64,000 bases of DNA from Clostridia bacterium (GCA_017646005.1 JAGCNJ010000041.1:3363-67362); one strand, 5' to 3'; positions 25,756-53,963 are shown, numbered from the stretch's first letter. Notes: generated from the sequence alone by a model not told the origin. Translations and numbers: made by a program.

Positions 25756-25785
25756 TGCAATTTTTGACAAAAAGCAAAAAAATAG

Positions 25786-25814: not shown

Positions 25815-25861
25815 GTAATAAGTATGTAAAAGGGATAGCGGGCACCCGCACGGTTATACAG

Positions 25862-31733: not shown

Positions 31734-31760
31734 AACAATCTCCATTTATTATTTTTTATA

Positions 31761-34573: not shown

Positions 34574-36154
34574 TCAGATACAGTTAAATCTCTCGTCCTC
34601 GGAGAACATATAATGGTAGAAGTTGTTTTCTCCGAAGGCACCTGTTTCGTACATTTTATCTATTATCTCATTAGTATAAGGATATGTGACCGAAGGGTCA
34701 AGTGAACGCTCAAGATCTGCTCCCATACGCGAAAATTCGGATGCGTAGGGCTTGATTATCGTATTCTTTCTCCAGTTATAGCCAAGTCCGTTACGGGTGT
34801 TTACCGGAACTGCAAGTGCTATCAAAACACGGGCGTGCCACATAAAATTATTTTCAACAAACGCGTCCTTATACGTTGCTTCGGTGTGACCTCCGCCGTA
34901 GAACATATTGAACATCGTTTTATAATGTACGTAGCCGCCGAAGCCGTAGCCTGCATATCTGCAGAAGTTGTCAGACATTACAATATCCTCAAGTATAGCA
35001 TATGTCTCTTCGTTCTGCTCTGTCTGAGTGGTTATCCATACCTCCATCGGACTGTTGCAACGCTCAATAGCATTACCGCAAACTCTTATATGGAGATTAT
35101 GCTTTCTTTTCTGATCTTCCTTTTGAGTTGTAAGATCTCCCTGCCACTGCACGGTAGGTCCGCAATCAAACGCTTGATATATGTAGTTATTAACGATCGT
35201 GTAATTCTTCGCAGTTCCGAAAATTTCAATTGAATTTCCGTATCTTGTAATATGCGTGGGGCTGATATGCTGTACAGCACCGCCTATCCAGCCGACCTCG
35301 CAGTTACGAACGGTAAGGTCAATACAGTTGCCGCCTCCGACACCGTGCTGTGCGCCGTAAAGGATCGCAAGATTATCAAGGGTCGCACCGTTTGCAATTT
35401 GCACGACGTTTCCCTTTTTTGCAAGGTCTATTCTTTCGTAGACCTCGCCGGGATTACCGTATACGCTCACAAGATAAAGCTCACCGTTTAAGATATCGTA
35501 ATAATATTCAAGGTCGTGGGAAAGATCCTGCGGTCCCGTAAATTTCGTTTGCGGCTTATACCACACCTCTTTACCGTTTGACACCATATTGCCTCTGCCC
35601 ACAAGTCTTGCGTAGCCAGGCTTTACCGGATCCTCGTATACTCTGAGTGCGTAGGCTTTGCCATCGTCAAAAATGATATTACCTATATCAAAATTTGGTC
35701 TTCCGTGTCCGTTTTCGTCAAGAGACGTGCATTTGTCAAGCGGATGCGCGTATTTATATATACAACGCTTATCGTTCCACAATACCCAGTCTTTTGGATT
35801 TGACGCATCTACCGAGCCGCAGATCTTGGGCTTATCGCCCTCACCGTATGCTGAATAGGTAACATACCTCTTGGAAATCAGACTTTCATGCCATCTGCCT
35901 CCCCGCTCGAAAAGCACGACGTCACCCTCGTTGAGAAGCCCGTCAGCGTTTATAAGCGCGAGTGTACGGAAAGCATTTTCCGGGCTTTTTCCGTCGTTGT
36001 TATCGTCGCCATTTTCGCTTACGTAGTAGATTGTACCGTTTTCACCGAGAGTCCACTCGCTTTTAGTTGCTCGGATCCTGTTTTTACGCGCTTCGAATTC
36101 GGCGTCGAGTGCCTGAATCATCTCCTGCGACGCCGCTTTGATATGCTCTGTCAA
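34574..36154 (-). CDS. beta-helix core paralog without signal peptide (predicted cytoplasmic)
   Basis: Close paralog of 32952-34526 (EMIQALDAEFEARKNRIRATKSEWTLGENGTIYYVSENGDDNNDGKSPE). I prefer TTG 36154 (giving MTEHIKAAS, which aligns to MEQIIKPAS, with GGGGG 9 nt upstream). The track ATG at 36169 has no SD and sits inside an operator-like palindrome. Confidence 0.75.
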   Translation of the reverse strand: MTEHIKAASQEMIQALDAEFEARKNRIRATKSEWTLGENGTIYYVSENGDDNNDGKSPENAFRTLALINADGLLNEGDVVLFERGGRWHESLISKRYVTYSAYGEGDKPKICGSVDASNPKDWVLWNDKRCIYKYAHPLDKCTSLDENGHGRPNFDIGNIIFDDGKAYALRVYEDPVKPGYARLVGRGNMVSNGKEVWYKPQTKFTGPQDLSHDLEYYYDILNGELYLVSVYGNPGEVYERIDLAKKGNVVQIANGATLDNLAILYGAQHGVGGGNCIDLTVRNCEVGWIGGAVQHISPTHITRYGNSIEIFGTAKNYTIVNNYIYQAFDCGPTVQWQGDLTTQKEDQKRKHNLHIRVCGNAIERCNSPMEVWITTQTEQNEETYAILEDIVMSDNFCRYAGYGFGGYVHYKTMFNMFYGGGHTEATYKDAFVENNFMWHARVLIALAVPVNTRNGLGYNWRKNTIIKPYASEFSRMGADLERSLDPSVTYPYTNEIIDKMYETGAFGENNFYHYMFSEDERFNCI

Positions 36155-36168
36155 AAAAATCGCCCCCA

Positions 36169-36216
36169 TATACTGTATATTAACTAAATTATACAGTATA
36201 ATAGGGACGATTTCAA
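36169..36216 (-). promoter_or_regulatory. promoter of the cytoplasmic beta-helix gene pair, overlapped by an 11-bp-arm inverted repeat
   Basis: The minus strand reads TTGAAA (36216-36211), 17-nt spacer, TATAAT (36193-36188). Inverted repeat TATACTGTATA (36169-36179) and TATACAGTATA (36190-36200), 10-nt spacer, spanning the -10 box to about +20. Confidence 0.55.
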
Positions 36217-37073: not shown

Positions 37074-40000
37074 TTATTTAAATGTTTGTCTTTTATAATA
37101 TTCGATCACCGCATCAGCTATTGCCTGGGAAGCTTTTTCTGTTCCCTGCGGGGATGATATTCTTTCATACTCCTCAACGTTTGTCATAAATCCTACTTCT
37201 ATCAGCGTTGAGGGATATCTTTCGCATCTGACCATCGCAAGCTTTTGCGTATCAGCACCTCGGTTAAGCCTTCCGAGCGCAAGCGAAAGCTTTTCTGACA
37301 TAATATTCGAAAGCGATCTTCCCGCATACTCCCAATAGAGTGCAACAAGTCCGCGTATTTTCGTTATGTCAACGCTGTAATCCATCGAATTCTGATGAAT
37401 CGATATCATCAGATCAGGGGCTAAATCTTCAACATACCCCATTCTGTCTGCAAGCGCAATGTAGCTGTCATCAGCACGCGTCAGAACCACGCTTGCTCCA
37501 AGGGCTTCAAGCTTTTCCCGTGTCAGATTTACTATGCTTAAATTTAACGCCGCCTCGTTATATATGCTCGCAGCACCCGATGCTCCGACGTCCCTGCCGC
37601 CGTGACCTGCATCAAGCACTATAACTCTGCCGTCAAGCGGGAGAGCTCCCGACGAAAGTCCGCTTGGATTTCGAAGCTTAACTACTGTTTTGCCATTCTC
37701 ATAAGCAAATTCAAATCCGAAGAAATTATCTTCGTTTTTAAGCTTGAGATGGTATCTGTAACAGTTTTTCTTGGTCGAGGTTTCCACCTTTACCGATTCA
37801 AACAATGCGTTGTCTAAAAGAGTCGGCACAGGCGCGCTTTTGGTATCCACGTTATAGAGATTTAAGATAAAATATCCATCCTCAACCCTGCCGTTAAGCG
37901 GTATATTTACGTCGCTGTCAATAATTATTTTGGTATGCGCACCGTCATTTTTGACTTCTGCACCCGATACCTTCGCTATCGGCACGTCGTTGTCAAGCTC
38001 ACGCACATCGTTTTGTGCAACATATCCGCCGACTCTGAGCAAATAATATCCGTCAGACAGACTCACGGCATTATCACGCATACCCTGCGCCTGCGAGGTA
38101 AAGTCATCGTAATAATAGCTGTCGGGCGCGATCTTCAGTCCTGTGCGCTCAGCCTTCACCTCCACGGGTATCACTGCATTCTTTCCGCCCACACGGACCT
38201 TTGCAAGCATCTCTTCTGCTCTGTAGTCGCCTTTTGTAGAAATGACCTTAAGCTCACCGAGATCAAGTATCTCTCCCTCAGCCGCCTTCGGAAGCAATAT
38301 CTTGCCCGAATACGTAGCTTCATAAAGCTTTCCCTTGTCAGATCCAGTCACTTTTTCTTCATCAACAAGCCGTACACTGTTTTTACCGAGCGTGCATACC
38401 ACCTCAGAGCCCGCGGGAGCCTTGACTTTTACGTTTATTGCTTCGCCCGCGCTTGTAAAGATATCGCCTGCAGGAGCTACGGGGACTATTTTATATTCGT
38501 CCATTACCTTATAGCTTTGCACCTGAGAACCGGATGCGGTGCTCTGACTTGTTCCGTTATATACGGTAAATATGTAATCCTTGCCGTTTTGAGTGAATAC
38601 AAGTTCGTTTTTACCCGATTCAAGCTCAAGCATATGCGAAAAATATCCGCGCTTGGTACGGCTTATTTTCTGACCGTTATAATACACGGGGTATGCAGGA
38701 TCGGATGATCCCAAAACGTAGGTTTGCTTAAGGGATGCGAGGGTCGAGCCGTTTGCGGGGCTGTTGAAAACGACCCCACTGTTATCACTTTGCGCATCCG
38801 AGTATACAATACTTTCTTCAAACGCAAGCGCAAGCTCTTCACATATTCCCTCGGTGTTTTTTGCTATCACGTCATATCCGTAAAGAAGACTTCCGCGATA
38901 GGAAAGCTCACTGCGTGCAAATTCGATCTGATTCAATATCTCATTACCTTCGCCGCTCCAGCCCTCTGCATATCTGTATGCACCGTGGCTTATAAGCAGA
39001 TCCACACCCGTGCCGTCGCACACAGCGTTCCACCAGCGTACAAGCGTGTCGTATCTTGAAGACTCTTCGGTGAATTTCCAATAAAGCTGAGGCGCTATAT
39101 AGTCGATATATCCGCCGTTTATCCACGCAAGCGCATCTCCGTAAAGCTCGCTGTAGGACTGCGTTCCCTTTGTCTTACTGCCTCCGTTTTTACCGTCGTC
39201 ATTCTGCCATATTCCAAAGGGTGATATGCCGAACAGTATTTCGCTGTCCGTTTCCTTTACAGCATCGTAAGATGCTTTAACAAGCTTGTTTATATTATCC
39301 CTTCGCCAATCGTTCAGAGCTTTTCCGTCCGAATACTTTTTATACGCATCCGAATCGTCAAAAACATCCTTTTTATCGCCCGTGTATGATACATAAGGGT
39401 AAAAATAATCGTCAAACACTATTCCGTCAACGTCATAATTTTCCGCGATCTCTCTGACTCCGCTTACTACAAGCTCTCTTACTTCGGGAATACCTGCGTT
39501 AAAATACAGCTTTCCGTCACCGTAAGCGACCGTATATTCGGGGTGTAAGCGTGCGGGATGATCCTTATAAAGCTTTGAAACATCATGTTCTGGCGAAGCC
39601 TTGCTTCCGTAAGTGACTCTGAGCGGATTTATCCATGCGTGTACCTTTATTCCCGCCAAATGGCCTTGTTTTACAAGGTATTCAAGAGGATCAAAGCCGC
39701 CCTTAAGAGCCTTGCCCTGCTCACCCGTGAGATATTCTGAGATCGGATATATCTCTGAATTGTAAAAAGCGTCTGCGTGCGCTCTTACCTGAAAGTAAAC
39801 AGCGTTAAGCTTGTTATTAACACAGTTTTCTATTATTGCATCAAGCTCATTTTTGAGCTGCGCCTCACTAAGCCCCTTTTTCGAGGGAAAGTTAATATTG
39901 TTCACCGTTGCGATCCACACGCCTCTCACCTCGGCATCGGGATCAAGTATCGCCCTTGTGCCAAGTGTATCGGCACCCTTTTCAAGCAATGTTACAATAG

Positions 40001-40160
40001 GGTTTGATCCGCTTGAATCAGGCAAAACAAGAGACGTTTCCCCGACAAGTGCAAGCATGGACACGACTACAGCCGCTGCACTTAAAAGTGCAACGACAGC
40101 AAAAAGTATGCCTGTTCCCTTCCTATTTATATCAAGATTAAAGCCAATCGCCATGTCCAT
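37074..40160 (-). CDS. membrane-anchored fusion: GHL10 (YngK-like glycosyl-hydrolase-like) domain plus C-terminal N-acetylmuramoyl-L-alanine amidase (Amidase_3)
   Basis: N-terminal TM segment GILFAVVALLSAAAVVVSMLALV. GHL10-like RGVWIATVNNINFPS...NAVYFQVRAHADAFYNS...GIKVHAWINPLRV. C-terminal VIVLDAGHGGRDVGASG...MISIHQNS...IEVGFMTNVEEYERI. Confidence 0.75.
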   Translation of the reverse strand: MDMAIGFNLDINRKGTGILFAVVALLSAAAVVVSMLALVGETSLVLPDSSGSNPIVTLLEKGADTLGTRAILDPDAEVRGVWIATVNNINFPSKKGLSEAQLKNELDAIIENCVNNKLNAVYFQVRAHADAFYNSEIYPISEYLTGEQGKALKGGFDPLEYLVKQGHLAGIKVHAWINPLRVTYGSKASPEHDVSKLYKDHPARLHPEYTVAYGDGKLYFNAGIPEVRELVVSGVREIAENYDVDGIVFDDYFYPYVSYTGDKKDVFDDSDAYKKYSDGKALNDWRRDNINKLVKASYDAVKETDSEILFGISPFGIWQNDDGKNGGSKTKGTQSYSELYGDALAWINGGYIDYIAPQLYWKFTEESSRYDTLVRWWNAVCDGTGVDLLISHGAYRYAEGWSGEGNEILNQIEFARSELSYRGSLLYGYDVIAKNTEGICEELALAFEESIVYSDAQSDNSGVVFNSPANGSTLASLKQTYVLGSSDPAYPVYYNGQKISRTKRGYFSHMLELESGKNELVFTQNGKDYIFTVYNGTSQSTASGSQVQSYKVMDEYKIVPVAPAGDIFTSAGEAINVKVKAPAGSEVVCTLGKNSVRLVDEEKVTGSDKGKLYEATYSGKILLPKAAEGEILDLGELKVISTKGDYRAEEMLAKVRVGGKNAVIPVEVKAERTGLKIAPDSYYYDDFTSQAQGMRDNAVSLSDGYYLLRVGGYVAQNDVRELDNDVPIAKVSGAEVKNDGAHTKIIIDSDVNIPLNGRVEDGYFILNLYNVDTKSAPVPTLLDNALFESVKVETSTKKNCYRYHLKLKNEDNFFGFEFAYENGKTVVKLRNPSGLSSGALPLDGRVIVLDAGHGGRDVGASGAASIYNEAALNLSIVNLTREKLEALGASVVLTRADDSYIALADRMGYVEDLAPDLMISIHQNSMDYSVDITKIRGLVALYWEYAGRSLSNIMSEKLSLALGRLNRGADTQKLAMVRCERYPSTLIEVGFMTNVEEYERISSPQGTEKASQAIADAVIEYYKRQTFK

Positions 40161-41874: not shown

Positions 41875-44511
41875 ATGAAAAGATTTTTTGCCATGCTGCT
41901 TGCCATTATCATGATCGCAACAGCCACACCGATGATGTCTCATGCGGATGAGGCTCCCGAAAAAACGCTCTTTTCGGCGTATGACATCTACTACGATGCA
42001 CAGATCGCGAACTTCACCACCGTTCAGCCCGTGCTTGAAATTTCGGACGGCGTACCCTACGCTTCCATGAAGGCTGAGCCCGGCACCTACGGCAACGGCG
42101 CACTTATGATGACGATAAAATCAAGCGCGCTCAAATTCAACGTGACCGAATATCCGTTCATTGCCGTCGGATACAAAACAGATGCGGTAACTCCCGGTGT
42201 CGATATCACTATGATGTATGACAACAATGAAACCTGGAGAAAAGAGGGCGGTTCAAGATACAAGATAACAAGCAACGGAAAGCTTGAAAAGCTTATATGC
42301 AATGCGCTCGATCTCAACGCCAAGGTGGAAATCAAGCCCGATTATCAGGGCATTGATATCAGACTGAAATTCTGGGGCGGTCATACGCAGGTGCTTTCAA
42401 CCAACCAGTATTTCGACGTTGCTTACATAGCCTTTTTCAAAACGCTTGATGAGGCAAATGCTTTCGTGTACAATCCCATAACCGAAGAAGAATACTTTGC
42501 AGAAAGTGACCTCAAAATAGTAAATAAGACCGTCACTGACGTTGATGAAAATACACTTCTCTCTTATCTTGCTCAGGCAGAAGCGCTTAAGTACGATATC
42601 ATCAACACCCCCAACACAGAATTCCCTCAGGCTAAAAAGACATATTACGTTTCGCCCGACGGCGATGATAACAACGACGGTCTTTCACCCGAAACAGCCT
42701 GGAAATCGCTTGAAAAGGTCGGAAGCGCAACCTACGGAAAGGATGACGTTGTACGCTTTAAGCGCGGCGGGATCTGGCGCGGTACTCTTAATCTTAAAAA
42801 CGGTGTGATCTACTCGGCTTACGGCGAGGGTCCCAAGCCCGAAATTTGGGGCTCTATCCCCGGCGAGGGCGCAGAAAATTGGGAGCTCACAGATGCTCCC
42901 AACGTATGGGCGTTCACAACGCCCCTTGAAAACGACAAGCACCCCGGAAACATCGTATTTAACGAGGGCGAAGCCTGGGGCATCCACGTTTACACCGACG
43001 GCAAGGGCAACAGACACGATCAGGGTACTGTTTTCAACGGAATCGAAACGGTTGAATGTCCCCCTACCCCTTACACAGGCTACAAGGATATCTTCCACAA
43101 CAATCTTGAATTCTGGTACGACGAAGAAGCAAAGACCGTGTATATGTACTGCGAATACGGCAACCCCGGAGAGTATTTTGATGACATCGAATTATCCCTT
43201 CGCCCCGATATGGTCAGCGGAGGAGGAAAATATATCATTTTCGATAACATCTGCCTTAAATATGGCGGCGGTCACGGAGTATCCGTTATGAACAGCGAAA
43301 GCGTCACGGTGCAGAATTGCGTGTTCGGCTGGCTCGGCGGAGGCGGACTCGGTAACGCCGTTCAGAACTGGGACAACTGCAAGGACTTCACGATCAATCA
43401 CAACTACGCTTATCAAATATACGACTGTGCGTGGACCACGCAGTCAAGCGTTACCTATGCCGACAGAACGATGGTGGACGTTGTTATGACAAACAACATC
43501 TCAGAGCGCTGCAACACGGGTGTTGAGATATGGCTGAGCGGTGACAACACCGACAAAAAGGGACTCCTTAAAAACTTTACCGTAGAAAACAACTTCACTC
43601 TCTACGGCGGGTGCGGCTGGAGCCATCAGCGCCGCCGCGATATCAAGGACGGCAACTTCGTTTTCGGAGGCACGGGAATTGACAGAGTCGTTTCGCGTGA
43701 AAATATGCATTTTGAAAACAACGTAAACATCCACGCAACACATATCGGACTTTATGCACGCTTCATAGGTCCTGCCGGCTTTATGTTCGACAACAACGTG
43801 TATATGATGCAGAGAGGCAAGTCGATGGCTTCTGCCGCATCAAATCTCAAGGACGGAAGCGGCTCGCTTATCAGATATCCCTACGATGAAAAGGGGATTT
43901 CCACGCTTGCCACGCTCGGCAACGACGTAAACTCCACCTTCTACTATCTCGCCGATGACTTTGAGCCGCACACAGACTCAAAGCTTCAGGACTTCACAGA
44001 CGTATACGGGCATTGGGGACTTGAAAATATCAGCTTTGCAGTAATGAAGGGACTCTTCTCGGGCACTACCGATACGACCTTCTCACCCAACGCGCCTATG
44101 ACGCGTGCAATGCTCGTAACCGTGCTTTCTCGCCTTGCAGGTGACGTTGATACCAATGCTGTATCGGGCTTCTCCGACGTAAAGGCTGACGCATGGTACA
44201 CATCTGCGGTAGCATGGGCAGAGGCTAAAGGCATCGTTGACAAGGGCGCTTCCTTCAGACCCGATGCCAACGCTACCCGTGAGGAAATGGCTGATATGCT
44301 CTACCGTTTCGCAAAAGCTTACGGTAAGGACACAAGCAAAAAAGCTGAACTTAAATTCACGGACGCTTCAAGCATCAAATGCAAGGACGCCGTCGCTTAT
44401 TGCGTAGGTGCCGGCATCATCGCAGGCTATAGCGACAACACCGTCAAGCCCGCAGGCGAGGCTACACGCACCGAGGTAGCTACGATGCTTAAGAGATTCA
44501 TCTTCGCTTGA
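41875..44511 (+). CDS. secreted beta-helix paralog with N-module and C-terminal SLH triad (no C modules)
   Basis: RBS GGAGG. Signal peptide MKRFFAMLLAIIMIATATPMMSHA. N-module ending YFDVAYIAFFKTLDEANAF. Cap motif TYYVSPDGDDNNDGLSPETAWKS. SLH triad at ~43984-44508 ends the protein. Confidence 0.88.
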   Translation: MKRFFAMLLAIIMIATATPMMSHADEAPEKTLFSAYDIYYDAQIANFTTVQPVLEISDGVPYASMKAEPGTYGNGALMMTIKSSALKFNVTEYPFIAVGYKTDAVTPGVDITMMYDNNETWRKEGGSRYKITSNGKLEKLICNALDLNAKVEIKPDYQGIDIRLKFWGGHTQVLSTNQYFDVAYIAFFKTLDEANAFVYNPITEEEYFAESDLKIVNKTVTDVDENTLLSYLAQAEALKYDIINTPNTEFPQAKKTYYVSPDGDDNNDGLSPETAWKSLEKVGSATYGKDDVVRFKRGGIWRGTLNLKNGVIYSAYGEGPKPEIWGSIPGEGAENWELTDAPNVWAFTTPLENDKHPGNIVFNEGEAWGIHVYTDGKGNRHDQGTVFNGIETVECPPTPYTGYKDIFHNNLEFWYDEEAKTVYMYCEYGNPGEYFDDIELSLRPDMVSGGGKYIIFDNICLKYGGGHGVSVMNSESVTVQNCVFGWLGGGGLGNAVQNWDNCKDFTINHNYAYQIYDCAWTTQSSVTYADRTMVDVVMTNNISERCNTGVEIWLSGDNTDKKGLLKNFTVENNFTLYGGCGWSHQRRRDIKDGNFVFGGTGIDRVVSRENMHFENNVNIHATHIGLYARFIGPAGFMFDNNVYMMQRGKSMASAASNLKDGSGSLIRYPYDEKGISTLATLGNDVNSTFYYLADDFEPHTDSKLQDFTDVYGHWGLENISFAVMKGLFSGTTDTTFSPNAPMTRAMLVTVLSRLAGDVDTNAVSGFSDVKADAWYTSAVAWAEAKGIVDKGASFRPDANATREEMADMLYRFAKAYGKDTSKKAELKFTDASSIKCKDAVAYCVGAGIIAGYSDNTVKPAGEATRTEVATMLKRFIFA

Positions 44512-44575
44512 GATTTGTGCTTTACGGTTTAAAGCGGGCTTCTTCAAAAAAATGCTATAATTATTAACAACTTAA

Positions 44576-44623
44576 CAGATGCTGCCAATGCGTTAAGCAG
44601 GCAGCGTCTGTTTTGTTTATTTT
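44576..44623 (+). terminator. rho-independent terminator after 41875-44511
   Basis: CAGATGCTGCC / GGCAGCGTCTG stem followed by TTTTGTTTATTTT. Confidence 0.7.
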
Positions 44624-44660
44624 GACTACTATTTCAATTATAATATGTGCAAAATACGAA

Positions 44661-44689
44661 TTGACCGTAAAGAACGCATATGATATAAT
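44661..44689 (+). promoter_or_regulatory. distal promoter upstream of 44872-49752
   Basis: TTGACC (44661-44666), 17-nt spacer, TGaTATAAT (-10 at 44684-44689). Confidence 0.55.
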
Positions 44690-44799
44690 ATTGTAGCTAT
44701 TATGGTAATTTATGCTTTATCGTGCCCGTCCGTTCCGATCCGGTCAGTTCGGGTGCTTCAATAGTGTACTATTTGCAATAATAAAGTCACTTTTTCGCA

Positions 44800-44829
44800 T
44801 TGTTTGTCCACACGGCAGTATGATATAAT
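44800..44829 (+). promoter_or_regulatory. proximal promoter upstream of 44872-49752
   Basis: TTGTTT (44800-44805), 18-nt spacer, TGaTATAAT (-10 at 44824-44829). It has the same extended -10 as the distal promoter. Confidence 0.5.
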
Positions 44830-44871
44830 GCAGTTACCATAGTTCAAGTAAAACGTGAAAGGAAACCACCA

Positions 44872-47800
44872 ATGAAAAAAGTCTTTTCCCTACTCCTCGT
44901 GATATGTATGCTCGTGTCGGCTCTGCCCTACACAGGCGCGGCTATCACATACGACAAATTTGACACGGTCTTTACAGCATTCACTCCGCTCAACTTCGAG
45001 CACAGTGTAACCGCGAAGATCCAAAAGTCAACCGAAAAAAACGGCTCTGTTCCGTATTTTCATTACGTTGCCGAACCCGGCGAATACACCAACACCGATC
45101 TCATAATCAAGCTGAAGGCAAAGAATATCAAGCCCGATGAATATCCGATCATAAAGGTGGAATACAAAACCAACTCGCCCAGCAGCATACTTGACGTATC
45201 AATGACATCTCCCAAGGGTGAAAACTGGCTTTCAAAGCATCCTGCACTCAATTCGGACGATCAATGGAATTCTGTTACCTTCAACTACAATGACATCACC
45301 GCAGCAGGAACACAGTATATCCCTAACAAAGGCGAAAGCAACATAACCTTCTGCTTCAAGCCCTTCGGATCACAGAAGGTCACTCTTGATAAGCAGTACT
45401 ATTTCGACCTCCATTATGTCGGATTTTTCAAAACCGAAGAAGAAGCCGCAAGCTTCAAGGGCTTCAACATGAATACGGCAAGCTATAAATACCCCGTAGT
45501 CACTCCCGAAGCATTGTTCAACAACTTTGCAGGCGGAAATGAAGTCAATTCCATAAACTACTTCAAGGTCGACGACACAAGCTCTTTTGTAAGATTCACC
45601 GTTGAACCCGGCACATACGGTAACAATCTTCTGATATCATTTACGCACTCTGCATTCCCTATTGTAGAGCGTCCGTATATAAAGCTTGCGTACAAAACCG
45701 ACTCCAAGGCGTCAAAGCTCGACATTTCAATGACCAGTGACAAGGGTGAAAACTGGCCGGCAGGTTCAAAAAAGCCGTCACTTGTCGGCACAGGCGAGCT
45801 TACCGAGCTTATATTTACAATAAACGATTTCACCGCGGCAAACGGTGTTGAGGCACCCGATGAAAACAGCTACGTAAACATCAGACTCAAGCCCTGGGGC
45901 GCACAGTCGGTAACTATTACCGAGCACTCTTATTTCGACCTCTATTACGTTGCCTTCTTTGAAACCGAAGAAGAAGCACGTTCATTCTCGTATCCCGGCG
46001 ATGACAACTATACGCACGATTATTCACAGGAGCTCTCGGCTGTAGATTATTCTTTCGCTTCCAAGGCAACTGTACGTGACTATATTGACGACGCAGATGC
46101 GCGCATCAACGAGGTTATCCACACAACCAACACGGTCCCCTATATGCAGCATCTTACTCTCACCGGACTTACAGGTGCTTACGGCTCCTCTGACGAGAAG
46201 GACAACAAAACCTTCTATACCATGACGATTCCGAAGGGCAAGCATGAGGCGGGCGCACTTAAATTTGCATTCACCCAGAACGACGTTGCTCTCTCATCCT
46301 ACCCGTTCATCAAGCTTTCTTATAAGAGCGAGGTTTCTTCCACCGCACTTGCAACTCTCAAATCAAGCAACGGAAGCGCATCGCTTGAATTTCCCATTTC
46401 AACATCAACAAACACCTATACCCAGAAGCTCTTCGATCTTTCAGACTTCGCAAACTACCAGTCGATCCTTCAGGGAAGCAACGTAACCTTTGAGGTGTAT
46501 CCTCTCGGAAACAACGCCAAGACGCTTATCAGCTCAAGAAGCCTTACACTTGAATATATAGGTCTGTTCAAAACGAGATCTGCGGCAAGCAACTTCGTCT
46601 ATGCCGGTGAACACGGCGCGAATATGACCTCCAATACGATCATATATACAGCCAAGCTCCTTGATCCTGCAAGAATCCCTTCAGGCAGAAAGGTATTCGT
46701 TGCTCAGAACGGATCAAGCAGCAGCTCAAACGACGGTTCAAATATAAACAACCCGATAAGCTTTGCAAGATTCAGATCCATTAACAGTTCACTTCCCCAA
46801 GGAACTGTAGTATTCTTCAAGCGTGGCGACAGCTTCCGTTATGACGGTTTGGTCTACGCACACGGATACGTTACATATACCTCCTACGGTGTCGGTGACA
46901 AGCCTAAGTTCATAGCTTCCATCGATGGTACGGGCGCAAGCAAGTGGACAAAGACTGAGCACAAGGACGTTTGGGTGTTCAACCAGTCTCTTAAAACACT
47001 TAACAACGACGTCGGACACATCCGTATCAACGACGGCGAGCTCTGGGGAATCAAGGTTTCCGCAAAGAACTATACCGATAACCGCGTAAACAACGGTGCA
47101 GTATTCAACGGACGTACCCATATCGAGGGCATGAACGGCACCCTCGAAAACGGTAAGGGACTTGTTAATGACCTTGAATTCTGGCATGATTATGACAATG
47201 GCAAGCTTTATCTTAACTGCGCCGACGGAAACCCCGGCGAGGTGTTTGACAGCTTTGAGATCGCCAATAGGGGTAACGCGATCAGCGGTTATTCCAATAC
47301 GACTGTGGATAACATCTACATCACAGGATGCGGAAGCCACGGTATCGGTATGGGTACCGTAAATAACGTAACCTTATCAAATCTTCACCTTGAGTGGATC
47401 GGCGGCTCCATACAGACTCTCGCGCTCAACGCAACTCCGACGGAAGGCGGCACTCCTACACGCTTCGGTAATGCTCTTGAAGCATACGGCGGCGCTGTAA
47501 ACGTTACAATGAAAAACAGCTTCTGTGACCAGGTATACGACTGCTGCTACACCGTCCAGAATCAGGGCGCTGTAAACTTCGAAAACGTATTTATGTATGA
47601 CAACGTCGCACGCTACAGTAACTCCGGTCTTGAGGTATGGCAGTCGGGCGGTACTACCACCAATATGCTGCTCTATGACAACTATACCCTCTTCGGCGGC
47701 TACGGCTGGAGCCATCAAAGACCTAACAAGGACGGTAACTTCTTCTACGGCGGTCTCGGCATAAGAACCACCGTCTTCACACAGAACTCTGTTCACAACA

Positions 47801-49752
47801 ATGTAAACATTCTAGCTTCCGCTGTAGCACTTCAGGTGAGCGAAATCGCATCAACAAGATACAACTTCAACTCAAACGTCTATATCATGGGTGAAAACAA
47901 GATCTATTCAAGAGCTCCCGTTAATCCCGAAGGTTCCGGCGCAACATCATCACACACCTATAATTACACTTCCATTTCCGCATCGCAGAGCAAGGGAACA
48001 GACCTCAACTCAAAATTCCTCTTTATCCCCACGGATCAGTTCAATATCGGCGATGATCCCTACGAGATATTCAAAGCAGGCAATAACCCGATATACGATA
48101 TCGAACCGAACGTTGACGAGATCGTTCTCGGTGTCGGAGATAAGTTCAACATATCATCCAAGGTTTATCCCGAAAGCGCAGAAAACAAGGAATTATATTA
48201 TTCAAGCGATCATCCCCTTGTCGCATCTGTAAACCAGGAAGGACAGATCACTGCTAACTGCAGCGGTTCTACCACAATCAAGCTTATATCCGTTGAATCG
48301 GGCGTTACCGCCAAAATAAAGGTTTCGGTAATCAACGTTGCTGACCGTCCGAGCATTTGGTCAAAGGATACGGCAGGCAAGGACTCTTATACGGCAAACG
48401 TCCTCTTTGTAGGCGACGATTTCTTTAGCGGTGAGCATAATCTTCCCTCTCTGTTCAATGAAAGCTTTTACGTTAACACTGAAACTATTGCGCAAAACGG
48501 TATGAGCTTCACATCCAATACTTATTCGGTAGCAGATGCGTTGGCAGATACCAAATCCAATTCCGCAGTGACCTTCATTTCAGCAGGATATAACGACTAT
48601 CTTGCAGGTGCTTCGCTTGCAGAATTTGAAGCGAGCTTAAAGGAAACATTCTCCAAGGCTCGCTCAACTCAATCCAAATCTACAATAGTTTACGTAACAC
48701 CTCTTAATCTTACCAAGGCTAAAAACTCACAGGGGCTTACCATCGGAGATTACGTAGAAAGCGCCAAAAGGATAGCTGCTACACAGCTTATCCGTGTTGC
48801 AGACATCTACACCAACCCCAAAAAGCCGTTTACCACCTTTGACAATAACGGGGACCCTGCATACATTTATTCAACTCTTATAAGCACGGACCTTTCATTT
48901 ACCGAAAAGGGTGTAGACAGATACCTTACCAACATAATCGCAGAAATAAGAGAAAACGCGCTTATATACGTTTACGGTATAGTTGAATACGCTCATACCT
49001 TTACAGCTGATATGCTTATAGGTGACGTTATTCATACAACCCATTTCCTTGCACCTGAGCCGGTTGCCGAAGCCGGAAACTCATACATCAGAATGAAGCC
49101 GGCGTACGTATTAACGGGTGCAGACGGCACGTCGTTTGATATCAAGTTTGTTAATTCAAGCCTGCCGATCAAGGAATATCCGATAATCAGAATCGATTAC
49201 CGTTCAAATATTTCAAGTGCAAATGCGAAGCTCGACCTTAATATGGGTGTCATATACAGTTCAGGCAACGCAAGGCTTTGGGGTCCCAATCATAGCTACA
49301 ATAAAAACGGTGAGCTTTCAACGCTCATCATTGACGCAACAAAGGCATTCACGGGCGGTGACAACATAAGCTCTCTTGCACAGGCAAATGACGATTCTCC
49401 CGTAACCTACTTAAGATTCAAGCCTTATGCAGGCGGTCAGACAAATACCGACGGCGATTACTTCGACATCATGTCCATTTCATTCTTCAAAACGGTTGAG
49501 GATGCCGAAAAGGGCGTTGCAGACGAGGAAGAGGAAATCCTCGTTCTCCGCGGCGATATCGACGGAAACGGCGTTATAGAAACTACAGACAGTGTCGCTC
49601 TTTCAAGATACTTTGCCAAGTGGACAGGCTACACAGATATCGATGAAGCAACTGCCGATATCGACGGAAACGGTCTTGTTGAAACAACAGACAGCGTTTC
49701 GTTCTCAAGATACTTCGCAAAGTGGACAGGTTACACAGACCTGTTCGACTGA
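44872..49752 (+). CDS. 1626-aa secreted beta-helix paralog with three N-modules, Big_2, degenerate SGNH-like domain, one C module and a C-terminal dockerin (no SLH)
   Basis: Signal peptide MKKVFSLLLVICMLVSALPYTGAA. Three modules end YFDLHYVGFFKTEEEAASF, YFDLYYVAFFETEEEARSF and LTLEYIGLFKTRSAASNF. Beta-helix motifs CGSHGIGMG, YDCCYTVQNQG and FGGYGWSHQRPNK. Dockerin repeats GDIDGNGVIETTDSVALSRYFAKW and ADIDGNGLVETTDSVSFSRYFAKW. Confidence 0.88.
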   Translation: MKKVFSLLLVICMLVSALPYTGAAITYDKFDTVFTAFTPLNFEHSVTAKIQKSTEKNGSVPYFHYVAEPGEYTNTDLIIKLKAKNIKPDEYPIIKVEYKTNSPSSILDVSMTSPKGENWLSKHPALNSDDQWNSVTFNYNDITAAGTQYIPNKGESNITFCFKPFGSQKVTLDKQYYFDLHYVGFFKTEEEAASFKGFNMNTASYKYPVVTPEALFNNFAGGNEVNSINYFKVDDTSSFVRFTVEPGTYGNNLLISFTHSAFPIVERPYIKLAYKTDSKASKLDISMTSDKGENWPAGSKKPSLVGTGELTELIFTINDFTAANGVEAPDENSYVNIRLKPWGAQSVTITEHSYFDLYYVAFFETEEEARSFSYPGDDNYTHDYSQELSAVDYSFASKATVRDYIDDADARINEVIHTTNTVPYMQHLTLTGLTGAYGSSDEKDNKTFYTMTIPKGKHEAGALKFAFTQNDVALSSYPFIKLSYKSEVSSTALATLKSSNGSASLEFPISTSTNTYTQKLFDLSDFANYQSILQGSNVTFEVYPLGNNAKTLISSRSLTLEYIGLFKTRSAASNFVYAGEHGANMTSNTIIYTAKLLDPARIPSGRKVFVAQNGSSSSSNDGSNINNPISFARFRSINSSLPQGTVVFFKRGDSFRYDGLVYAHGYVTYTSYGVGDKPKFIASIDGTGASKWTKTEHKDVWVFNQSLKTLNNDVGHIRINDGELWGIKVSAKNYTDNRVNNGAVFNGRTHIEGMNGTLENGKGLVNDLEFWHDYDNGKLYLNCADGNPGEVFDSFEIANRGNAISGYSNTTVDNIYITGCGSHGIGMGTVNNVTLSNLHLEWIGGSIQTLALNATPTEGGTPTRFGNALEAYGGAVNVTMKNSFCDQVYDCCYTVQNQGAVNFENVFMYDNVARYSNSGLEVWQSGGTTTNMLLYDNYTLFGGYGWSHQRPNKDGNFFYGGLGIRTTVFTQNSVHNNVNILASAVALQVSEIASTRYNFNSNVYIMGENKIYSRAPVNPEGSGATSSHTYNYTSISASQSKGTDLNSKFLFIPTDQFNIGDDPYEIFKAGNNPIYDIEPNVDEIVLGVGDKFNISSKVYPESAENKELYYSSDHPLVASVNQEGQITANCSGSTTIKLISVESGVTAKIKVSVINVADRPSIWSKDTAGKDSYTANVLFVGDDFFSGEHNLPSLFNESFYVNTETIAQNGMSFTSNTYSVADALADTKSNSAVTFISAGYNDYLAGASLAEFEASLKETFSKARSTQSKSTIVYVTPLNLTKAKNSQGLTIGDYVESAKRIAATQLIRVADIYTNPKKPFTTFDNNGDPAYIYSTLISTDLSFTEKGVDRYLTNIIAEIRENALIYVYGIVEYAHTFTADMLIGDVIHTTHFLAPEPVAEAGNSYIRMKPAYVLTGADGTSFDIKFVNSSLPIKEYPIIRIDYRSNISSANAKLDLNMGVIYSSGNARLWGPNHSYNKNGELSTLIIDATKAFTGGDNISSLAQANDDSPVTYLRFKPYAGGQTNTDGDYFDIMSISFFKTVEDAEKGVADEEEEILVLRGDIDGNGVIETTDSVALSRYFAKWTGYTDIDEATADIDGNGLVETTDSVSFSRYFAKWTGYTDLFD
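44944..46600 (+). repeat. three tandem N-type family modules at the N-terminus of the dockerin paralog
   Basis: Three successive units each contain [YE]P[IYF]IK[VL].YK[TS], GENW (units 1 and 2), KP[FW]G and Y[FL].L.Y[VI]G[FL]F[KE]T...A..F. Confidence 0.75.
48395..48960 (+). other. SGNH-like domain with substituted catalytic Ser and His
   Basis: Block I VLFVGDDFFSG (GDS replaced by GDD; codon 48418-48420 is GAT), block III ISAGYNDY, block V-equivalent STDLSFTEKG (Asp-x-x-Phe; codon 48898-48900 is TTT). Confidence 0.5.
49543..49749 (+). other. dockerin (two Ca-binding repeat segments)
   Basis: GDIDGNGVIETTDSVALSRYFAKWTGY and ADIDGNGLVETTDSVSFSRYFAKWTGY form a D-x-D-x-N-G EF-hand-like duplicated segment at the extreme C-terminus. 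Confidence 0.8.
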
Positions 49753-49782
49753 TAAAGATTTTTATTCTATGTTCCTGATGCA

Positions 49783-49826
49783 TTTTGGGACAGATTTGAA
49801 ATCCGGTTTTCAAATCCGTCCCAAAA
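49783..49826 (+). other. long intercistronic hairpin between the two dockerin genes
   Basis: TTTTGGGACAGATTTGAAA-TCCGG-TTTCAAATCCGTCCCAAAA forms a 19-bp stem with one A/C mismatch. No T-run follows on the plus strand, and I see no promoter in the 103-nt gap. Confidence 0.5.
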
Positions 49827-49855
49827 GCAAAAATATAAATTAATGGAGGAAAACT

Positions 49856-52800
49856 ATGAAAGCACAGACACTTCGCAAAACCCTTGCTATCGTTCTCTCG
49901 GTGCTTATGCTCGTTAGCGTAATGCCCCTTTCAATGATGGCAGCAACAACCGAAGACTGGCAGATCGACGGTGATTACGTCATTCTTTCCGGTCAGGCAC
50001 TTATCGATGCCACCACAGCAAATAGTGGTGTATCATCGGTCAATCTTATTTCCGAACCGGGTAAAACCTATGCGAAATATAACCTTACCGTAGGAAGCAC
50101 AAACTCTATGGTATCCGTTTCGCAGGAAAAATCCGGCATCAACCTTGCTGAATACGATTACTACGTATTCAAGTACTTCCAGTCTCAGAATCAAGGCAAT
50201 CTTGATACAACCTTCTCGGCATCCTGGGATGCTTCTGCTTATGAGCAGAGCGATCTTTGGGGCTACACCTTCTACGAGCAGTGGTCAAAGCTCGGTCATC
50301 CGGCGGCATCCAAAGGTCAGTGGAAGACAAAGACTATGACAAGAACCGAGTTCTACGGCTGCGCAGGCAAAAACGGAACACCCGATCCCGTAGACCATTT
50401 TGCTCCCGTTCCCGCACTCACAAAACAGCTTTTCAGATTCAAGCCCGCTAAGCAGAATGCAGCTACAGACGGCTCTTACTTCGGTCTTGAATACTTCGCT
50501 TGCTTCAAGACAAAGGATCAGGCTGATGCATTCATCGAAATGCAGGAAGCCGGCCTTATCCCCGTTACCTCCTTTGACGTTGAAACCGGCAGCGCAACAG
50601 ATAAAGTAACAACATCTGTAGGAAACATTATTCCCGTAACCGTGACAGTTGCCCCCGCTTATGCGGCAAGCGCAGTTAAGGTTGCTGTTACAGGCGACAG
50701 CATTACTTACGCAAACAATAAGTTAACAGCAATTAAGAACGGTACTTCAACCGTTACCATCACTGCTAACGACGGAATTGACGGCGCTGAAAAGTTCAGC
50801 GAATCGTTCACTGTTGAGGTAGTAGCTCCTCAGTCTGTTACCATCACAGGCGCTGAGCTTGCAGACAAGGTTAAAACTGCAGCTCTTGTAATGTCTCACG
50901 AGGTCGTCAACGATGCAAAGTACGGCAGAAGAATGCTCAAGAGCACAGCTACTGCTGCCGTTGCAGGCGGTGATAACTCCTATATCCAGTACGACCTTTC
51001 TTCGTTCGGAGTTCTTGCAAAGACCTTCCCCTATATGCAGATCGGTTATGCTGCAAAGACAACAAGTGCAAGCTTTACAGATATAAACGTTGCTATTGAC
51101 GGCTATCAGGTTCTTGGCACTCAGGCGCCTGTCATCAACAGACTCTGGGGACCTAAGCCCACAACAGTTCAGGAAACCTTCAGTAAGTGGAACATTCCTT
51201 ACACCCAATATGCGACCGGCGAAAAGAACTATAATATGACTGAGGATCCCTGGGTACACTACGGACACGACTGGAACTGGATCTCGGATACCGGTACATA
51301 TGAGTATCTCAGAATCAAGCCCTGGCCAGCAAACACAAACGCAAGTGCTGTAGGCGATTACATTGCTATTGAATACATCGCATTCTTCTCAAGTGAAGAA
51401 GCTATGAACAACTACGTTTTTGCTGTAGAGCTTGACAGCATGGAGGTTCCCGAAGCTCTCACAGTTCCGAAGAACTCCACCAGAAAGCTTGAAGTAGCAG
51501 TTGAGCCCGAGGGCGCATACGTTAAGCTTGAGTACACAGTAGAAGATCCTTCGATCGTATCCGTTTCCGAAACAGGTAACGTTCTCGGTCTTAAGGAAGG
51601 ATCGACAAAGGTAACCGTAAAGACCCCCGACGGCAAGTTCAGCGGTGTTTGCACGGTTACAGTTACAGCTCCGCAGGAATCCTCTTGCATCGTAATCGGT
51701 GCACAGGATCTCATTAGCGGTATTTCCTACGAGGGCGGTCTCACAGGATCGACTTCACTTGTTGACGATGACACACTTGCTATGCGTCTTGTAAAGTCAG
51801 AGATCCTTGCAAGCTGCACAGGCGGAGACTCTATTGCTATCCAGTACGGTGTAAAGGATGCAAACGTTCTTGCTAAGCAGTATCCGATAGTTCAGGTAGC
51901 ATACAAGGCTCATATCAATAATAAGTCAAGCATAGACCTTAACTTCGGTATTGATAAGTATTACGCTAACGGAGACAAGAACAATATCAAGGCCGTTCGT
52001 CTTTGGGGTATCAGACCTTCATACGTAAACGACCAGTTCACAACACTTTACTGGGATTCATCAAAGGCAACAGGCGGTGACCCCGTTGGCTCGAACTATT
52101 CCTGGAACAACGTTACAGACGACGGTATTTACTCCTACTTAAGACTTAAGCTCTGGGGTGGACAGGGCGGTACCAATCCCACAAAGGGTGACACATTTGA
52201 GGTACAGTACATCGCTTTCTTCCCGGACGTTGCAACTATGGAATCCTTCGTATATGAAACAGACCTCGCCGGAATAGAGGTTCCAAGCGGATTTGATATC
52301 CAACAGGGTACAACAGCCAAGCTTCCCGTTAACCTTGTTCCTTCCACGGCTTATGCAAAGCTCGTTTACGAAAGCCAGAACGAATACGTTGCACGCGTAA
52401 CCGCAGACGGCAAGATAATCGCTCTCAATCCCGGTCAGGTTGCAGTTGACGTCAAGACACACGATGGTAAGTTCTCCGGCACGTGCATCGTAAACGTAAC
52501 CTATCCCGAAAAGGATTACAGCCAGTATATCTTCGATCGAGACAATCTTGAAAACCTCGTTTACAAGGTTAACGTAGAAAAGAAGCTCAACGTTGTATAC
52601 CTCGGCGGCTCTGTTACCGCAGGTGCAGGCGCAAGTGCTGCCGACTCCACATCCTGGAGAGGTCTTACCGGCTTGTGGCTCAAGAATATGTTCCCCGACG
52701 TAGAAGTTAACCTTCACAACTCCGCAATGGGCGGCTCGGGCTCGATGCTCGGTGCGTTCAGAACAGACGTTGACGTTCTTGCACACGATCCTGACCTTGT

Positions 52801-53881
52801 ATTCGTTGAATTCGCAGTTAACGACTCCTACAGCAAACATTATGCAGACGGCACAGTTCAGTTCTACTATGAATCGATCCTCCGTCAGATCAGAGAAAAA
52901 TCTCCCGATACAGAGATCATTTCGATCTTCGTAACAGACCAGGGACTCTTACATCAGACAGATATGAGCCCGATCGCAAAGCTTCATAATGAGGTTGCTG
53001 CTCACTACGGTGTAACCGGTATCGACGTTGGACGTGCTATGAACAATCATATCACTTCCACAGGCGGAACATGGGGCGAATACGTATCCGACTCTGTTCA
53101 CCCCGGTGACAAGGGCTATGCGATCTACGGCGACGCTATCAAGCAGTATCTCTTCGCTAAGCTCTTCGGTGCTGATGAAGTACCCGAAAAGCCTATCGAG
53201 CATACAGTTCCCGAAACTTACATCGACGAAAGAAATATTGATTTCGTTCCCACATACGTTAAGGTTACAGAAAACACCTTCACAGATGTAAAGGGCTGGA
53301 CATACAGCGCAAACAAGGTTTACAACAACCTTGATACAGCCGGCTACGTTTACCCCTCTGCTAATGATAACAGCATCACCTACAAGTTCAAGGGTACCGG
53401 TATCGCGTTCTTTATGGAATTTAACGGCGGCGGATACTACGTTAACTGGTCACTTGACGGCGGCTCTACTCAGTCGTTTAAGGTAACAGATACAAACCAC
53501 GCATTTAACTATATGTACAAAACAGGTGTACTTGAGGATACATGGCACACTCTCACCTTCTCTTATAAGGGTGCAAGCAATACGGGCGGAACAAACCCGA
53601 ACGTAAAGCTTACAAGACTTCTTGTTTCTCAAGTAGCTTCCGAAGAACCCGAAGTTCTCCTCGGTGACGTAGACGGAAACGGCACTGTTGAGCCTACAGA
53701 CGCAGTTGCACTTGCACGCTACAATGCTAAGTGGTCAGGCTATAGCGAAGACGACATCAACCTTGCAAACTCCGACGTAGACGGCGTAGGCGGTGTTGAC
53801 GCCACAGACGGCGTTATCCTCTCCCGTTACTTTGCAAAGTGGGCAGGATACGAAACTCTCCCCTACGTTCCCGCTGAATAA
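49856..53881 (+). CDS. 1341-aa secreted dockerin protein: three family modules alternating with three Big_2 domains, then an SGNH/GDSL hydrolase, a beta-sandwich-like domain and a dockerin
   Basis: RBS GGAGG. Signal peptide MKAQTLRKTLAIVLSVLMLVSVMPLSMMAA. Module ends YFGLEYFACFKTKDQADAF, YIAIEYIAFFSSEEAMNNY and FEVQYIAFFPDVATMESF. Big_2-like domains at ~50559-50825, 51427-51675 and 52274-52507. SGNH blocks VVYLGGSVTAG, NSAMGGSGS, EFAVNDS and DSVHPGDKGY. Dockerin GDVDGNGTVEPTDAVALARYNAKW and SDVDGVGGVDATDGVILSRYFAKW. Confidence 0.88.
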   Translation: MKAQTLRKTLAIVLSVLMLVSVMPLSMMAATTEDWQIDGDYVILSGQALIDATTANSGVSSVNLISEPGKTYAKYNLTVGSTNSMVSVSQEKSGINLAEYDYYVFKYFQSQNQGNLDTTFSASWDASAYEQSDLWGYTFYEQWSKLGHPAASKGQWKTKTMTRTEFYGCAGKNGTPDPVDHFAPVPALTKQLFRFKPAKQNAATDGSYFGLEYFACFKTKDQADAFIEMQEAGLIPVTSFDVETGSATDKVTTSVGNIIPVTVTVAPAYAASAVKVAVTGDSITYANNKLTAIKNGTSTVTITANDGIDGAEKFSESFTVEVVAPQSVTITGAELADKVKTAALVMSHEVVNDAKYGRRMLKSTATAAVAGGDNSYIQYDLSSFGVLAKTFPYMQIGYAAKTTSASFTDINVAIDGYQVLGTQAPVINRLWGPKPTTVQETFSKWNIPYTQYATGEKNYNMTEDPWVHYGHDWNWISDTGTYEYLRIKPWPANTNASAVGDYIAIEYIAFFSSEEAMNNYVFAVELDSMEVPEALTVPKNSTRKLEVAVEPEGAYVKLEYTVEDPSIVSVSETGNVLGLKEGSTKVTVKTPDGKFSGVCTVTVTAPQESSCIVIGAQDLISGISYEGGLTGSTSLVDDDTLAMRLVKSEILASCTGGDSIAIQYGVKDANVLAKQYPIVQVAYKAHINNKSSIDLNFGIDKYYANGDKNNIKAVRLWGIRPSYVNDQFTTLYWDSSKATGGDPVGSNYSWNNVTDDGIYSYLRLKLWGGQGGTNPTKGDTFEVQYIAFFPDVATMESFVYETDLAGIEVPSGFDIQQGTTAKLPVNLVPSTAYAKLVYESQNEYVARVTADGKIIALNPGQVAVDVKTHDGKFSGTCIVNVTYPEKDYSQYIFDRDNLENLVYKVNVEKKLNVVYLGGSVTAGAGASAADSTSWRGLTGLWLKNMFPDVEVNLHNSAMGGSGSMLGAFRTDVDVLAHDPDLVFVEFAVNDSYSKHYADGTVQFYYESILRQIREKSPDTEIISIFVTDQGLLHQTDMSPIAKLHNEVAAHYGVTGIDVGRAMNNHITSTGGTWGEYVSDSVHPGDKGYAIYGDAIKQYLFAKLFGADEVPEKPIEHTVPETYIDERNIDFVPTYVKVTENTFTDVKGWTYSANKVYNNLDTAGYVYPSANDNSITYKFKGTGIAFFMEFNGGGYYVNWSLDGGSTQSFKVTDTNHAFNYMYKTGVLEDTWHTLTFSYKGASNTGGTNPNVKLTRLLVSQVASEEPEVLLGDVDGNGTVEPTDAVALARYNAKWSGYSEDDINLANSDVDGVGGVDATDGVILSRYFAKWAGYETLPYVPAE
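52585..53175 (+). other. SGNH/GDSL hydrolase domain, catalytic residues present
   Basis: Block I VVYLGGSVTAG (Ser), block II MGGSGS, block III FAVNDS and block V SDSVHPGDKGY (Asp-x-x-His). Confidence 0.7.
53657..53878 (+). other. dockerin (two Ca-binding repeat segments)
   Basis: GDVDGNGTVEPTDAVALARYNAKWSGY and SDVDGVGGVDATDGVILSRYFAKWAGY at the extreme C-terminus. Confidence 0.8.
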
Positions 53882-53923: not shown

Positions 53924-53963
53924 AAAATCCCCGAAAGAGTAAAATCTTTCGGGGATTTTGTTG
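53924..53963. terminator. bidirectional terminator between the dockerin gene and spoIIIAH
   Basis: AAAATCCCCGAAAGA-GTAAAA-TCTTTCGGGGATTTT perfect 15-bp stem. Confidence 0.85.

Follow-up and report, generated by a model that had tools for sequence, protein, structure and literature searches.

Two adjacent dockerin-bearing genes in a paralogous surface-protein locus

We analyzed a 64,000-nucleotide stretch of DNA from a Clostridia bacterium (GCA_017646005.1 JAGCNJ010000041.1:3363-67362; hereafter the window) and focused on two neighboring plus-strand genes, DOC1 (44872-49752) and DOC2 (49856-53881), whose products both end in a dockerin and are the only two dockerin-bearing proteins in the window. 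Both genes are intact open reading frames (ORFs) for secreted multidomain proteins, of 1626 amino acids (aa) for DOC1 and 1341 aa for DOC2, and both begin with typical signal peptides as read from the sequence (MKKVFSLLLVICMLVSALPYTGAA in DOC1 and MKAQTLRKTLAIVLSVLMLVSVMPLSMMAA in DOC2). The DOC1 signal peptide is followed by three modules resembling carbohydrate-binding modules (CBMs), a beta-helix core, a Big_2 domain, a degenerate SGNH-like domain, a fourth CBM-like module and the dockerin. In DOC2, three such modules interleaved with Big_2 domains precede an SGNH esterase, a segment of about 160 aa and the dockerin.

Hidden Markov model (HMM) iteration placed the first three DOC1 modules, each a beta-jelly-roll of about 150 aa with likeness to CBM11 and CBM29, at 45019-46599 (aa 50-196, 227-373 and 436-576). 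They are followed by the right-handed beta-helix core at 46600-48117 (aa 577-1082), which is common to nine other ORFs of the window, the Big_2 domain at 48121-48300 (aa 1084-1143; Pfam 32 bits), the probably inactive SGNH-like domain at 48382-48831 (aa 1171-1320), module 4 at 49048-49518 (aa 1393-1549) and the dockerin at 49552-49734, with repeats at 49555-49632 and 49657-49734. The DOC2 esterase at 52592-53140 (aa 913-1095) scores 83.2 bits against Lipase_GDSL_2 and retains intact catalytic motifs, GGS with the block I Ser and DSVH, of D-x-x-H form, with the block V His; the Big_2 match of the same protein reaches 66 bits. Between the esterase and the dockerin (53660-53851; repeats at 53666-53743 and 53774-53851) lies a segment at 53153-53635 (aa 1100-1260) that has no Pfam match and is the sole domain-sized stretch (at least 130 aa) left unassigned across DOC1, DOC2 and the two SLH paralogs mapped in detail. 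The make-up of DOC2 is thus as an earlier note on this DNA had described it, with modules, Big_2, an SGNH esterase and a C-terminal dockerin. All of these features lie on the plus strand.

DOC2 has only the modules and the dockerin in common with DOC1 and contains no beta-helix core. The DOC1 SGNH-like domain scores 28.7 bits, under the Pfam cut-off of 32.9, and carries GDD for GDS in block I and Phe for the block V His. When aligned with DOC2, two DOC1 orthologs (P0002 and P0004) also proved to have no SGNH Ser, and a third (P0003) retains GDS and the His. The DOC1 domain thus looks like a pseudo-esterase under decay or repurposing.

DOC1 and DOC2 likely form a two-gene operon, given a near-consensus promoter-like site ahead of DOC1, the absence of a strong hairpin in the gap between the genes, and a strong hairpin beyond DOC2. 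The promoter-like site (44661-44689, plus strand; TTGACC, a 17-nucleotide spacer, TATAAT and a TG extension) matches the consensus at 11/12 positions and is a consensus match only, as the regional count of such sites is not above shuffled expectation. The 103-nucleotide gap holds no hairpin comparable in strength to the bidirectional, terminator-like hairpin with a 15-bp stem at 53924-53959, which separates DOC2 from the convergent spoIIIAH.

The C-terminal repeats are type-I-like dockerins conserved among relatives

Both C-terminal segments match Pfam Dockerin_1 (PF00404) above its gathering cut-off of 22.9 bits, DOC1 over residues 1561-1614 (26.9 bits, E 5.5e-6) and DOC2 over residues 1269-1326 (32.1 bits, E 1.3e-7), and the DOC1 ortholog P0002 reaches 33.7 bits. 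The earlier note had proposed C-terminal dockerins at these positions, with two repeats in DOC1, and a dockerin HMM as the check, which both segments pass. Type I dockerins consist of two tandem repeats of about 22-26 residues, each a Ca-binding loop followed by a helix. The repeats found here, two per dockerin, take the form D-x-D-G-x-G-x-[IV]-x-x-x-D ... R-Y-[FN]-A-K-W-x-G-Y, an EF-hand-like loop plus helix. The DOC1 loops, DIDGNGVIETTD and DIDGNGLVETTD, have Asp at position 1, Asp or Asn at positions 3 and 5, and Asp at position 12; so do the DOC2 loops, DVDGNGTVEPTD and DVDGVGGVDATD, except at position 5 of the second. The two repeats of DOC1 are identical at 24/28 positions and those of DOC2 at 17/28, and the two dockerins are 59% identical to each other.

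A profile built from the DOC1 and DOC2 dockerins recovered solved type I dockerins, among them Clostridium thermocellum CelS (E 1e-10) and Xyn10B, which argues that the match is not due to chance. These clostridial cellulosome dockerins (CelS/Cel48S and Xyn10B; PDB 2mte, 1daq, 1ohz and 2ccl) resemble those of DOC1 and DOC2 in being C-terminal PF00404 domains with two EF-hand-like loops and helices. They are among the nearest solved relatives (E 1e-10 to 3e-8), with only a double-dockerin serine protease (8x39) scoring better (E 2.4e-14). DOC1 and DOC2 differ from them in a conserved A-x-W-x-G-Y after each helix and in that the carriers are not cellulases. By these sequence marks, the dockerins of DOC1 and DOC2 are genuine and type-I-like.

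We then asked how well the pair is kept. The order SLH protein, DOC1, DOC2, spoIIIAH is retained in four relatives, and both dockerins are present in all four. DOC1 orthologs are 51-58% identical overall and 77, 57 and 54% identical in their dockerins; the DOC1 dockerin is thus as conserved as the whole protein or more, which suggests purifying selection. The spoIIIA operon lies directly 3' of DOC2 in convergent orientation, and the organism is a spore former. Its closest NCBI relative is a metagenome-assembled genome (MAG) labeled 'Clostridia bacterium' (GCA_017482465.1). DOC1 is identical to a protein on the 100,982-bp ENA scaffold XIEF21-1_SAMN15830154_METAG-scaffold_41, the sole public scaffold on which it was located. 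Exact-protein look-ups gave no record for DOC2, an enolase or the first SLH protein. The first 2489 nucleotides of the window (1-2489) run about 2.5 kb past the start of that scaffold, so the window belongs to a different assembly from the same population; the 3' region is also found in a second sample, SAMN15830159.

A paralogous glycan-active family with a variable anchor

DOC1 belongs to a large family. BLASTP pairs its residues ~440-1055 with the N-terminal half of each of the six SLH proteins in the window (29-36% identity, E 1e-63 to 1e-87), and a core HMM matches ten window paralogs, DOC1 included. An AlphaFold2 (AF2) model of the core is a right-handed beta-helix (predicted local distance difference test score, pLDDT, 81). 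Foldseek pairs this model with the GH120 enzyme XylC (E 3e-9) and then with GH136, BT_1002, GH110 and polysaccharide lyases, including capsule lyases, at template-modelling (TM) scores of only 0.2-0.42. By sequence the core has no match in Pfam, nor in the PDB with single-sequence or profile queries, and the model suggests an unclassified beta-helix that may be glycosidase- or lyase-like.

The second shared element is the module of about 150 aa, which iterated HMM searching found in 26 copies across nine window proteins, four of them in DOC1 and three in DOC2; the copies span 23-25714 and 41875-53881 (for example 45019-45459 and 49048-49518). The module bears the signature YP.IK..Y+...KPW...Y.DI.YIAFF.T..EA and matches no Pfam family, and a word-indexed database search with its profile returned one match. 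A model of the DOC1 module 4 sequence (AF2, pLDDT 89.8) has CBM11, CBM29, CBM28, CBM4 and CIA30 as its nearest solved folds in Foldseek (TM-score up to 0.61), and the module profile run against PDB sequences gave CIA30 alone, at E 0.29. From its modelled fold, the module is probably an undescribed family of carbohydrate-binding modules. The core and module models, together with the BLASTP alignments to the six SLH paralogs, bear out the proposal that 44872-49752 encodes the beta-helix core and modules of this family.

The family is not uniform in how its members are held. Six of the ten core paralogs carry an SLH triad (PF00395, 100-116 bits in each), one carries a dockerin (DOC1), one has a lipoprotein-type signal and two have no signal peptide. 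The SLH-anchored member directly upstream of DOC1 (41875-44511, plus strand; 878 aa) consists of a module, the core and a C-terminal SLH triad. The paralog with the lipoprotein-type signal (LLAGC; 30243-31745, minus strand) is a probable lipoprotein, and it contains no modules, SLH or dockerin; the same holds for the two members without a signal peptide (32952-34526 and 34574-36169, minus strand), whose products are apparently cytoplasmic, which is odd for an otherwise surface-displayed family. Outside the window, two homologs with 57% identity to DOC1 (P0005 and P0006) have Choline_bind_4 repeats at the C-terminus, and two others have no anchor (P0007 and L018).

Pfam detects no SLH domain in DOC1 or DOC2. 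The earlier claim that a dockerin takes the place of the SLH triad in DOC1 therefore stands as to content, but the exchange is not like-for-like in position: in the paralogs the triad lies mid-protein, directly behind the core, whereas in DOC1 a Big_2 domain, the degenerate SGNH-like domain and a module intervene before the dockerin, so that this is no one-for-one swap. The broader claim, that the family uses alternative anchors, gained further cases in its lipoprotein-type, signal-less, choline-binding and anchor-less members. That the slot holds SLH domains, choline-binding repeats or nothing in other family members argues that it is interchangeable and that the dockerin serves as a localisation module.

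A comparable pairing of display modes occurs in Ruminiclostridium cellulolyticum, in which Cel5I, an SLH-containing GH5 enzyme, exists alongside cellulosomal dockerin enzymes (PMC4976890). There, as here, related carbohydrate-active enzymes are displayed on the wall via SLH or via a dockerin; the locus studied here differs in that both modes occur inside one expanded paralog family at one locus.

Two further genes lie among those of the family: a minus-strand gene at 37074-40160 encodes a 1028-aa fusion of GHL10 and Amidase_3, and a plus-strand gene at 25721-27430 encodes a VanY-type D-Ala-D-Ala carboxypeptidase. These neighbors hint that the locus may act on bacterial cell-wall or envelope glycans rather than on plant fibre.

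The W-type dockerin subtype travels with a cohesin clade

The A-x-W-x-G-Y extension defines what we call the W-type subtype, [LS]xR[YH]xAxWxGY. Queried with the dockerin profile, a word-indexed search yielded nothing longer than fragments of 133 aa. HMMER, run without an index over 1.84 billion representatives with a DOC1/DOC2-type profile, gave 7,104 matches at E<=1e-3, of which 1,268 had E<=1e-10; 147 of the best 150 matches were studied more closely. The full loop followed by xR[YHF]xAxW was present in 89 of these 147 best-scoring representatives, and G25 (83%) and Y26 (89%) after the W were conserved although the search pattern had left them free. In solved dockerins the AxWxGY segment went unmatched in three alignments, with the best stretches listed ending by profile position 61; the exception among the listed PDB matches was Amy10 of R. 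bromii, a weak match (E 0.0057) whose stretch reached profile position 67. No solved PDB dockerin thus clearly covers the extension. The W-type flavor appears real and distinct, yet common and not specific to this family; the distinctiveness that the earlier note saw in RY[FN]AKW[TSA]GY holds for the subtype, but the subtype is widespread (1,268 representative clusters at E<=1e-10) and not special to these two proteins.

The usual carriers of the W-type dockerin are non-cellulolytic surface proteins with BspA-type leucine-rich repeats (LRRs), Listeria-Bacteroides repeats, Big_3 domains or M23/CHAP peptidases. Among other database proteins, P0173, P0225, P0245 and P0248 bear the module of the family and end in a W-type dockerin, and P0270 also combines module and dockerin; these five are database entries that are not assignable to this genome. 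Several carriers have many tandem dockerins, namely P0123, P0126 (9 matched stretches), P0132 (9 matched stretches and 17 Ca-loop motifs) and P0125, the last of which has N-terminal SLH repeats together with four dockerins of two flavors.

Cohesins accompany this subtype in other organisms. Pfam Cohesin was found in 19/63 subtype-bearing representatives, and our own cohesin HMM matched 21 of the 147 best-scoring ones, 16 of which end in a C-terminal dyad whose cohesin finishes about 7 residues before the dockerin. We scanned genomes for this clade with a narrow cohesin alignment and obtained 11 loci (L007-L017) from Oscillospiraceae, from Ruminococcus sp. and Clostridia MAGs of goat, cattle, deer and water deer guts, and from Clostridium sp. 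CAG:138. Seven of the 11 have a gene with a C-terminal W-type dockerin followed directly by a gene for a signal peptide and N-terminal cohesin (L007 1836-6581; L008 4727-7369; L009 1872-6324; L010 471-6920; L011 3-4307; L012 2-3693; L015 4667-11648). The first gene of these cassettes encodes a surface protein (M23, LRR_5 or Flg_new modules) whose C-terminus is a W-type dockerin, with or without a cohesin ahead of it. In the second, the cohesin is followed by a C-terminal hydrophobic or transmembrane anchor (2 loci), a Lys-rich tail (2) or a dockerin of another flavor (3). Five of the six second-gene proteins scanned had cohesins at the Pfam threshold (51-72 bits); that of L012 scored only with our own HMM.

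We built an HMM from the 16 cohesin-fused dockerins only, and it scored the DOC1 dockerin at 89.7 bits and that of DOC2 at 102.4 bits, as against 51.9 bits for CelS and 16-49 bits for the other-flavor dockerins of the same cassettes. These scores indicate that the dockerins of DOC1 and DOC2 are of the subtype associated with one particular cohesin clade, which occurs in ruminant-gut MAGs and thus, from record titles and sample names, apparently in the same kind of habitat as the source contig. The scaffoldin-like cohesin-dockerin proteins of these gut and rumen Oscillospiraceae and Ruminococcus (L007-L017) have the same dockerin subtype as DOC1 and DOC2; they differ in that many contain a fused cohesin and most of the loci have a downstream cohesin gene, and DOC1 and DOC2 have neither. 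Ruminococcal scaffoldin-like proteins that bear LRRs, Listeria-Bacteroides repeats and endopeptidase modules are also listed in a 2026 preprint (bioRxiv 10.64898/2026.02.05.704116).

A cohesin partner encoded elsewhere is the favored reading

No large ORF of the window matches the Pfam cohesin family (PF00963). This result and a six-frame search with a cohesin HMM agree with the earlier report that the window holds no cohesin. PMC4300822, citing Peer et al. 2009, describes Ruminococcus albus 7 as having many dockerin proteins and a single putative cohesin, and dockerins on non-cellulolytic proteins and dockerin-rich, cohesin-poor genomes are documented there and in a rumen metagenome survey (PMC6487960). 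Against this documented background, a cohesin-free 64 kb is expected rather than surprising.

The most likely reading, which we hold with confidence slightly above even, is that the partner cohesin is encoded elsewhere in the genome and probably falls in the cohesin clade that accompanies this dockerin subtype, given the fusion and adjacency of W-type dockerins to cohesins in other organisms. DOC1 and DOC2, which are probably co-transcribed, would then act as a pair of secreted proteins active on glycans, DOC1 contributing the beta-helix core, DOC2 the SGNH esterase and both the CBM-like modules, within a large paralogous toolkit that is otherwise fixed to the wall via SLH triads in a spore-forming gut Clostridia bacterium. 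Their dockerins would dock in a Ca2+-dependent manner onto that cohesin, for which the candidate is the clade found fused to the W-type dockerin, or encoded beside it, in other Clostridia of gut and rumen, and the two proteins would come to sit on a membrane-anchored or adaptor scaffold and not directly on the S-layer. Both the existence of such a cohesin in this organism, and with it of the cohesin-bearing scaffold that the earlier note proposed, and the binding of DOC1 and DOC2 to it are what we infer.

Several observations weigh against this reading. A filter-free, six-frame search with the cohesin HMM gave a best E of 4 in the window and 0.07 when the loci of relatives were included, the 10 kb past the 3' end of the window hold housekeeping genes and no cohesin, and about 100 kb of contigs from relatives and carriers of family homologs (including P0003, P0005 and P0007) contain none either. 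These searches covered about 170 kb in total, which is a small part of a genome, and the source is a metagenome scaffold. Nor do DOC1 and DOC2 contain a fused cohesin such as many carriers of the subtype have. A cohesin stands neither directly before the dockerin nor in the downstream gene: a CBM-like module precedes the DOC1 dockerin, and DOC2 and then the spoIIIA operon lie downstream. Scanning genome contigs with DOC1 found no relative, and the lineage went unrecovered in capped collection scans, two of genome contigs and one of metagenome contigs; a metagenome-contig scan with the core alignment yielded one locus (L018) with two anchor-less family members and no cohesin. The second Ca loop of DOC2 (53774-53809, DVDGVGGVDATD) has a non-liganding Val at position 5, where orthologs have Val or Ile (L004 and L005). 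Binding of the W-type dockerin to the adjacent cohesin clade is drawn from gene and domain adjacency only, and genomes with many dockerins and one or no cohesin, such as that of R. albus 7, are on record (PMC4300822). The organism studied here resembles R. albus 7 in having dockerin-bearing glycan-active enzymes and no evident scaffoldin; it differs in being known from a contig alone, whereas the whole genome of R. albus 7 is known, and in being a heavy user of SLH.

The same absences would follow if DOC1 and DOC2 were orphan dockerins with no cohesin, serving Ca2+-dependent stabilisation, acting as a spacer, binding a non-cohesin partner such as the S-layer or wall, or persisting as a recently stranded remnant. 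No cohesin appeared in any of the lineage-related DNA examined, many carriers of the subtype are small or dockerin-only proteins, non-cellulosomal dockerins with no evident partner are widespread, and R. albus 7 pairs many dockerins with a single putative cohesin (PMC4300822). However, four relatives retain both dockerins, with identities no lower than those of the whole proteins, which argues for a selected binding function, the W-type subtype is repeatedly fused or adjacent to the cohesin clade, and the DNA examined is a small fraction of the genomes concerned. Orphan dockerins are the main rival to the favored reading, and we regard them as rather unlikely.

A partner cohesin on the scaffold of another organism, or self-association of the dockerins, is improbable. 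The cohesin clade is present in other taxa of apparently the same kind of habitat, which would suit the former, and the near-identity of the two DOC1 repeats is compatible with the symmetric interactions that the latter would involve. However, the cohesin-dockerin systems known to us are encoded within one genome, which counts against this explanation.

Finally, it is very improbable that a cryptic cohesin in the window, in the ~150-aa module or another segment of the SLH proteins, makes the SLH paralogs anchoring scaffoldins for DOC1 and DOC2: the module is of cohesin-like size and beta-sandwich fold and occurs on every SLH protein, and divergent ruminococcal cohesins evade sequence profiles (bioRxiv 10.64898/2026.02.05.704116), but we reject the module as a hidden cohesin, since its confident model matches CBMs and CIA30 and the first 50 PDB matches include no cohesin, its profile finds CIA30 alone, DOC1 and DOC2 themselves bear it, and the only leftover stretch of at least 130 aa in the mapped proteins is aa 1100-1260 of DOC2.

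A possible non-cellulosomal display system in gut and rumen Clostridia

Returning to the reading in which a cohesin encoded elsewhere receives DOC1 and DOC2, we tentatively extend it to the subtype as a whole, at somewhat less than an even prospect: the W-type dockerin may be the mark of a display system in gut and rumen Clostridia that is non-cellulosomal and as yet uncharacterised and that pairs dockerins with a dedicated cohesin clade, so that one enzyme family would have parallel SLH and cohesin routes to the surface. In such a system the cohesin clade would bring BspA-type adhesins and peptidoglycan hydrolases to the cell surface along with enzymes that act on glycans, DOC1 and DOC2 among them. 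Some of its cohesins would reside on single-cohesin proteins with a membrane anchor, others on adaptor dyads of cohesin and dockerin that could chain head to tail.

Collectively, our analysis confirms the observation from which it began, two adjacent dockerin proteins in a family otherwise anchored by SLH, and partly supports its interpretation. Anchor swapping is a known theme, and DOC1 and DOC2 are otherwise ordinary examples of modular anchor swapping. The W-type subtype appears to be part of a cohesin-dockerin system whose cargo is adhesins and wall hydrolases and not cellulases. If a partner cohesin exists, the W-type dockerin and its linked cohesin clade would provide a handle for finding the scaffold, and one paralogous enzyme family would be split over the S-layer, a scaffold, a lipoprotein and the cytoplasm in a single uncultured gut bacterium.

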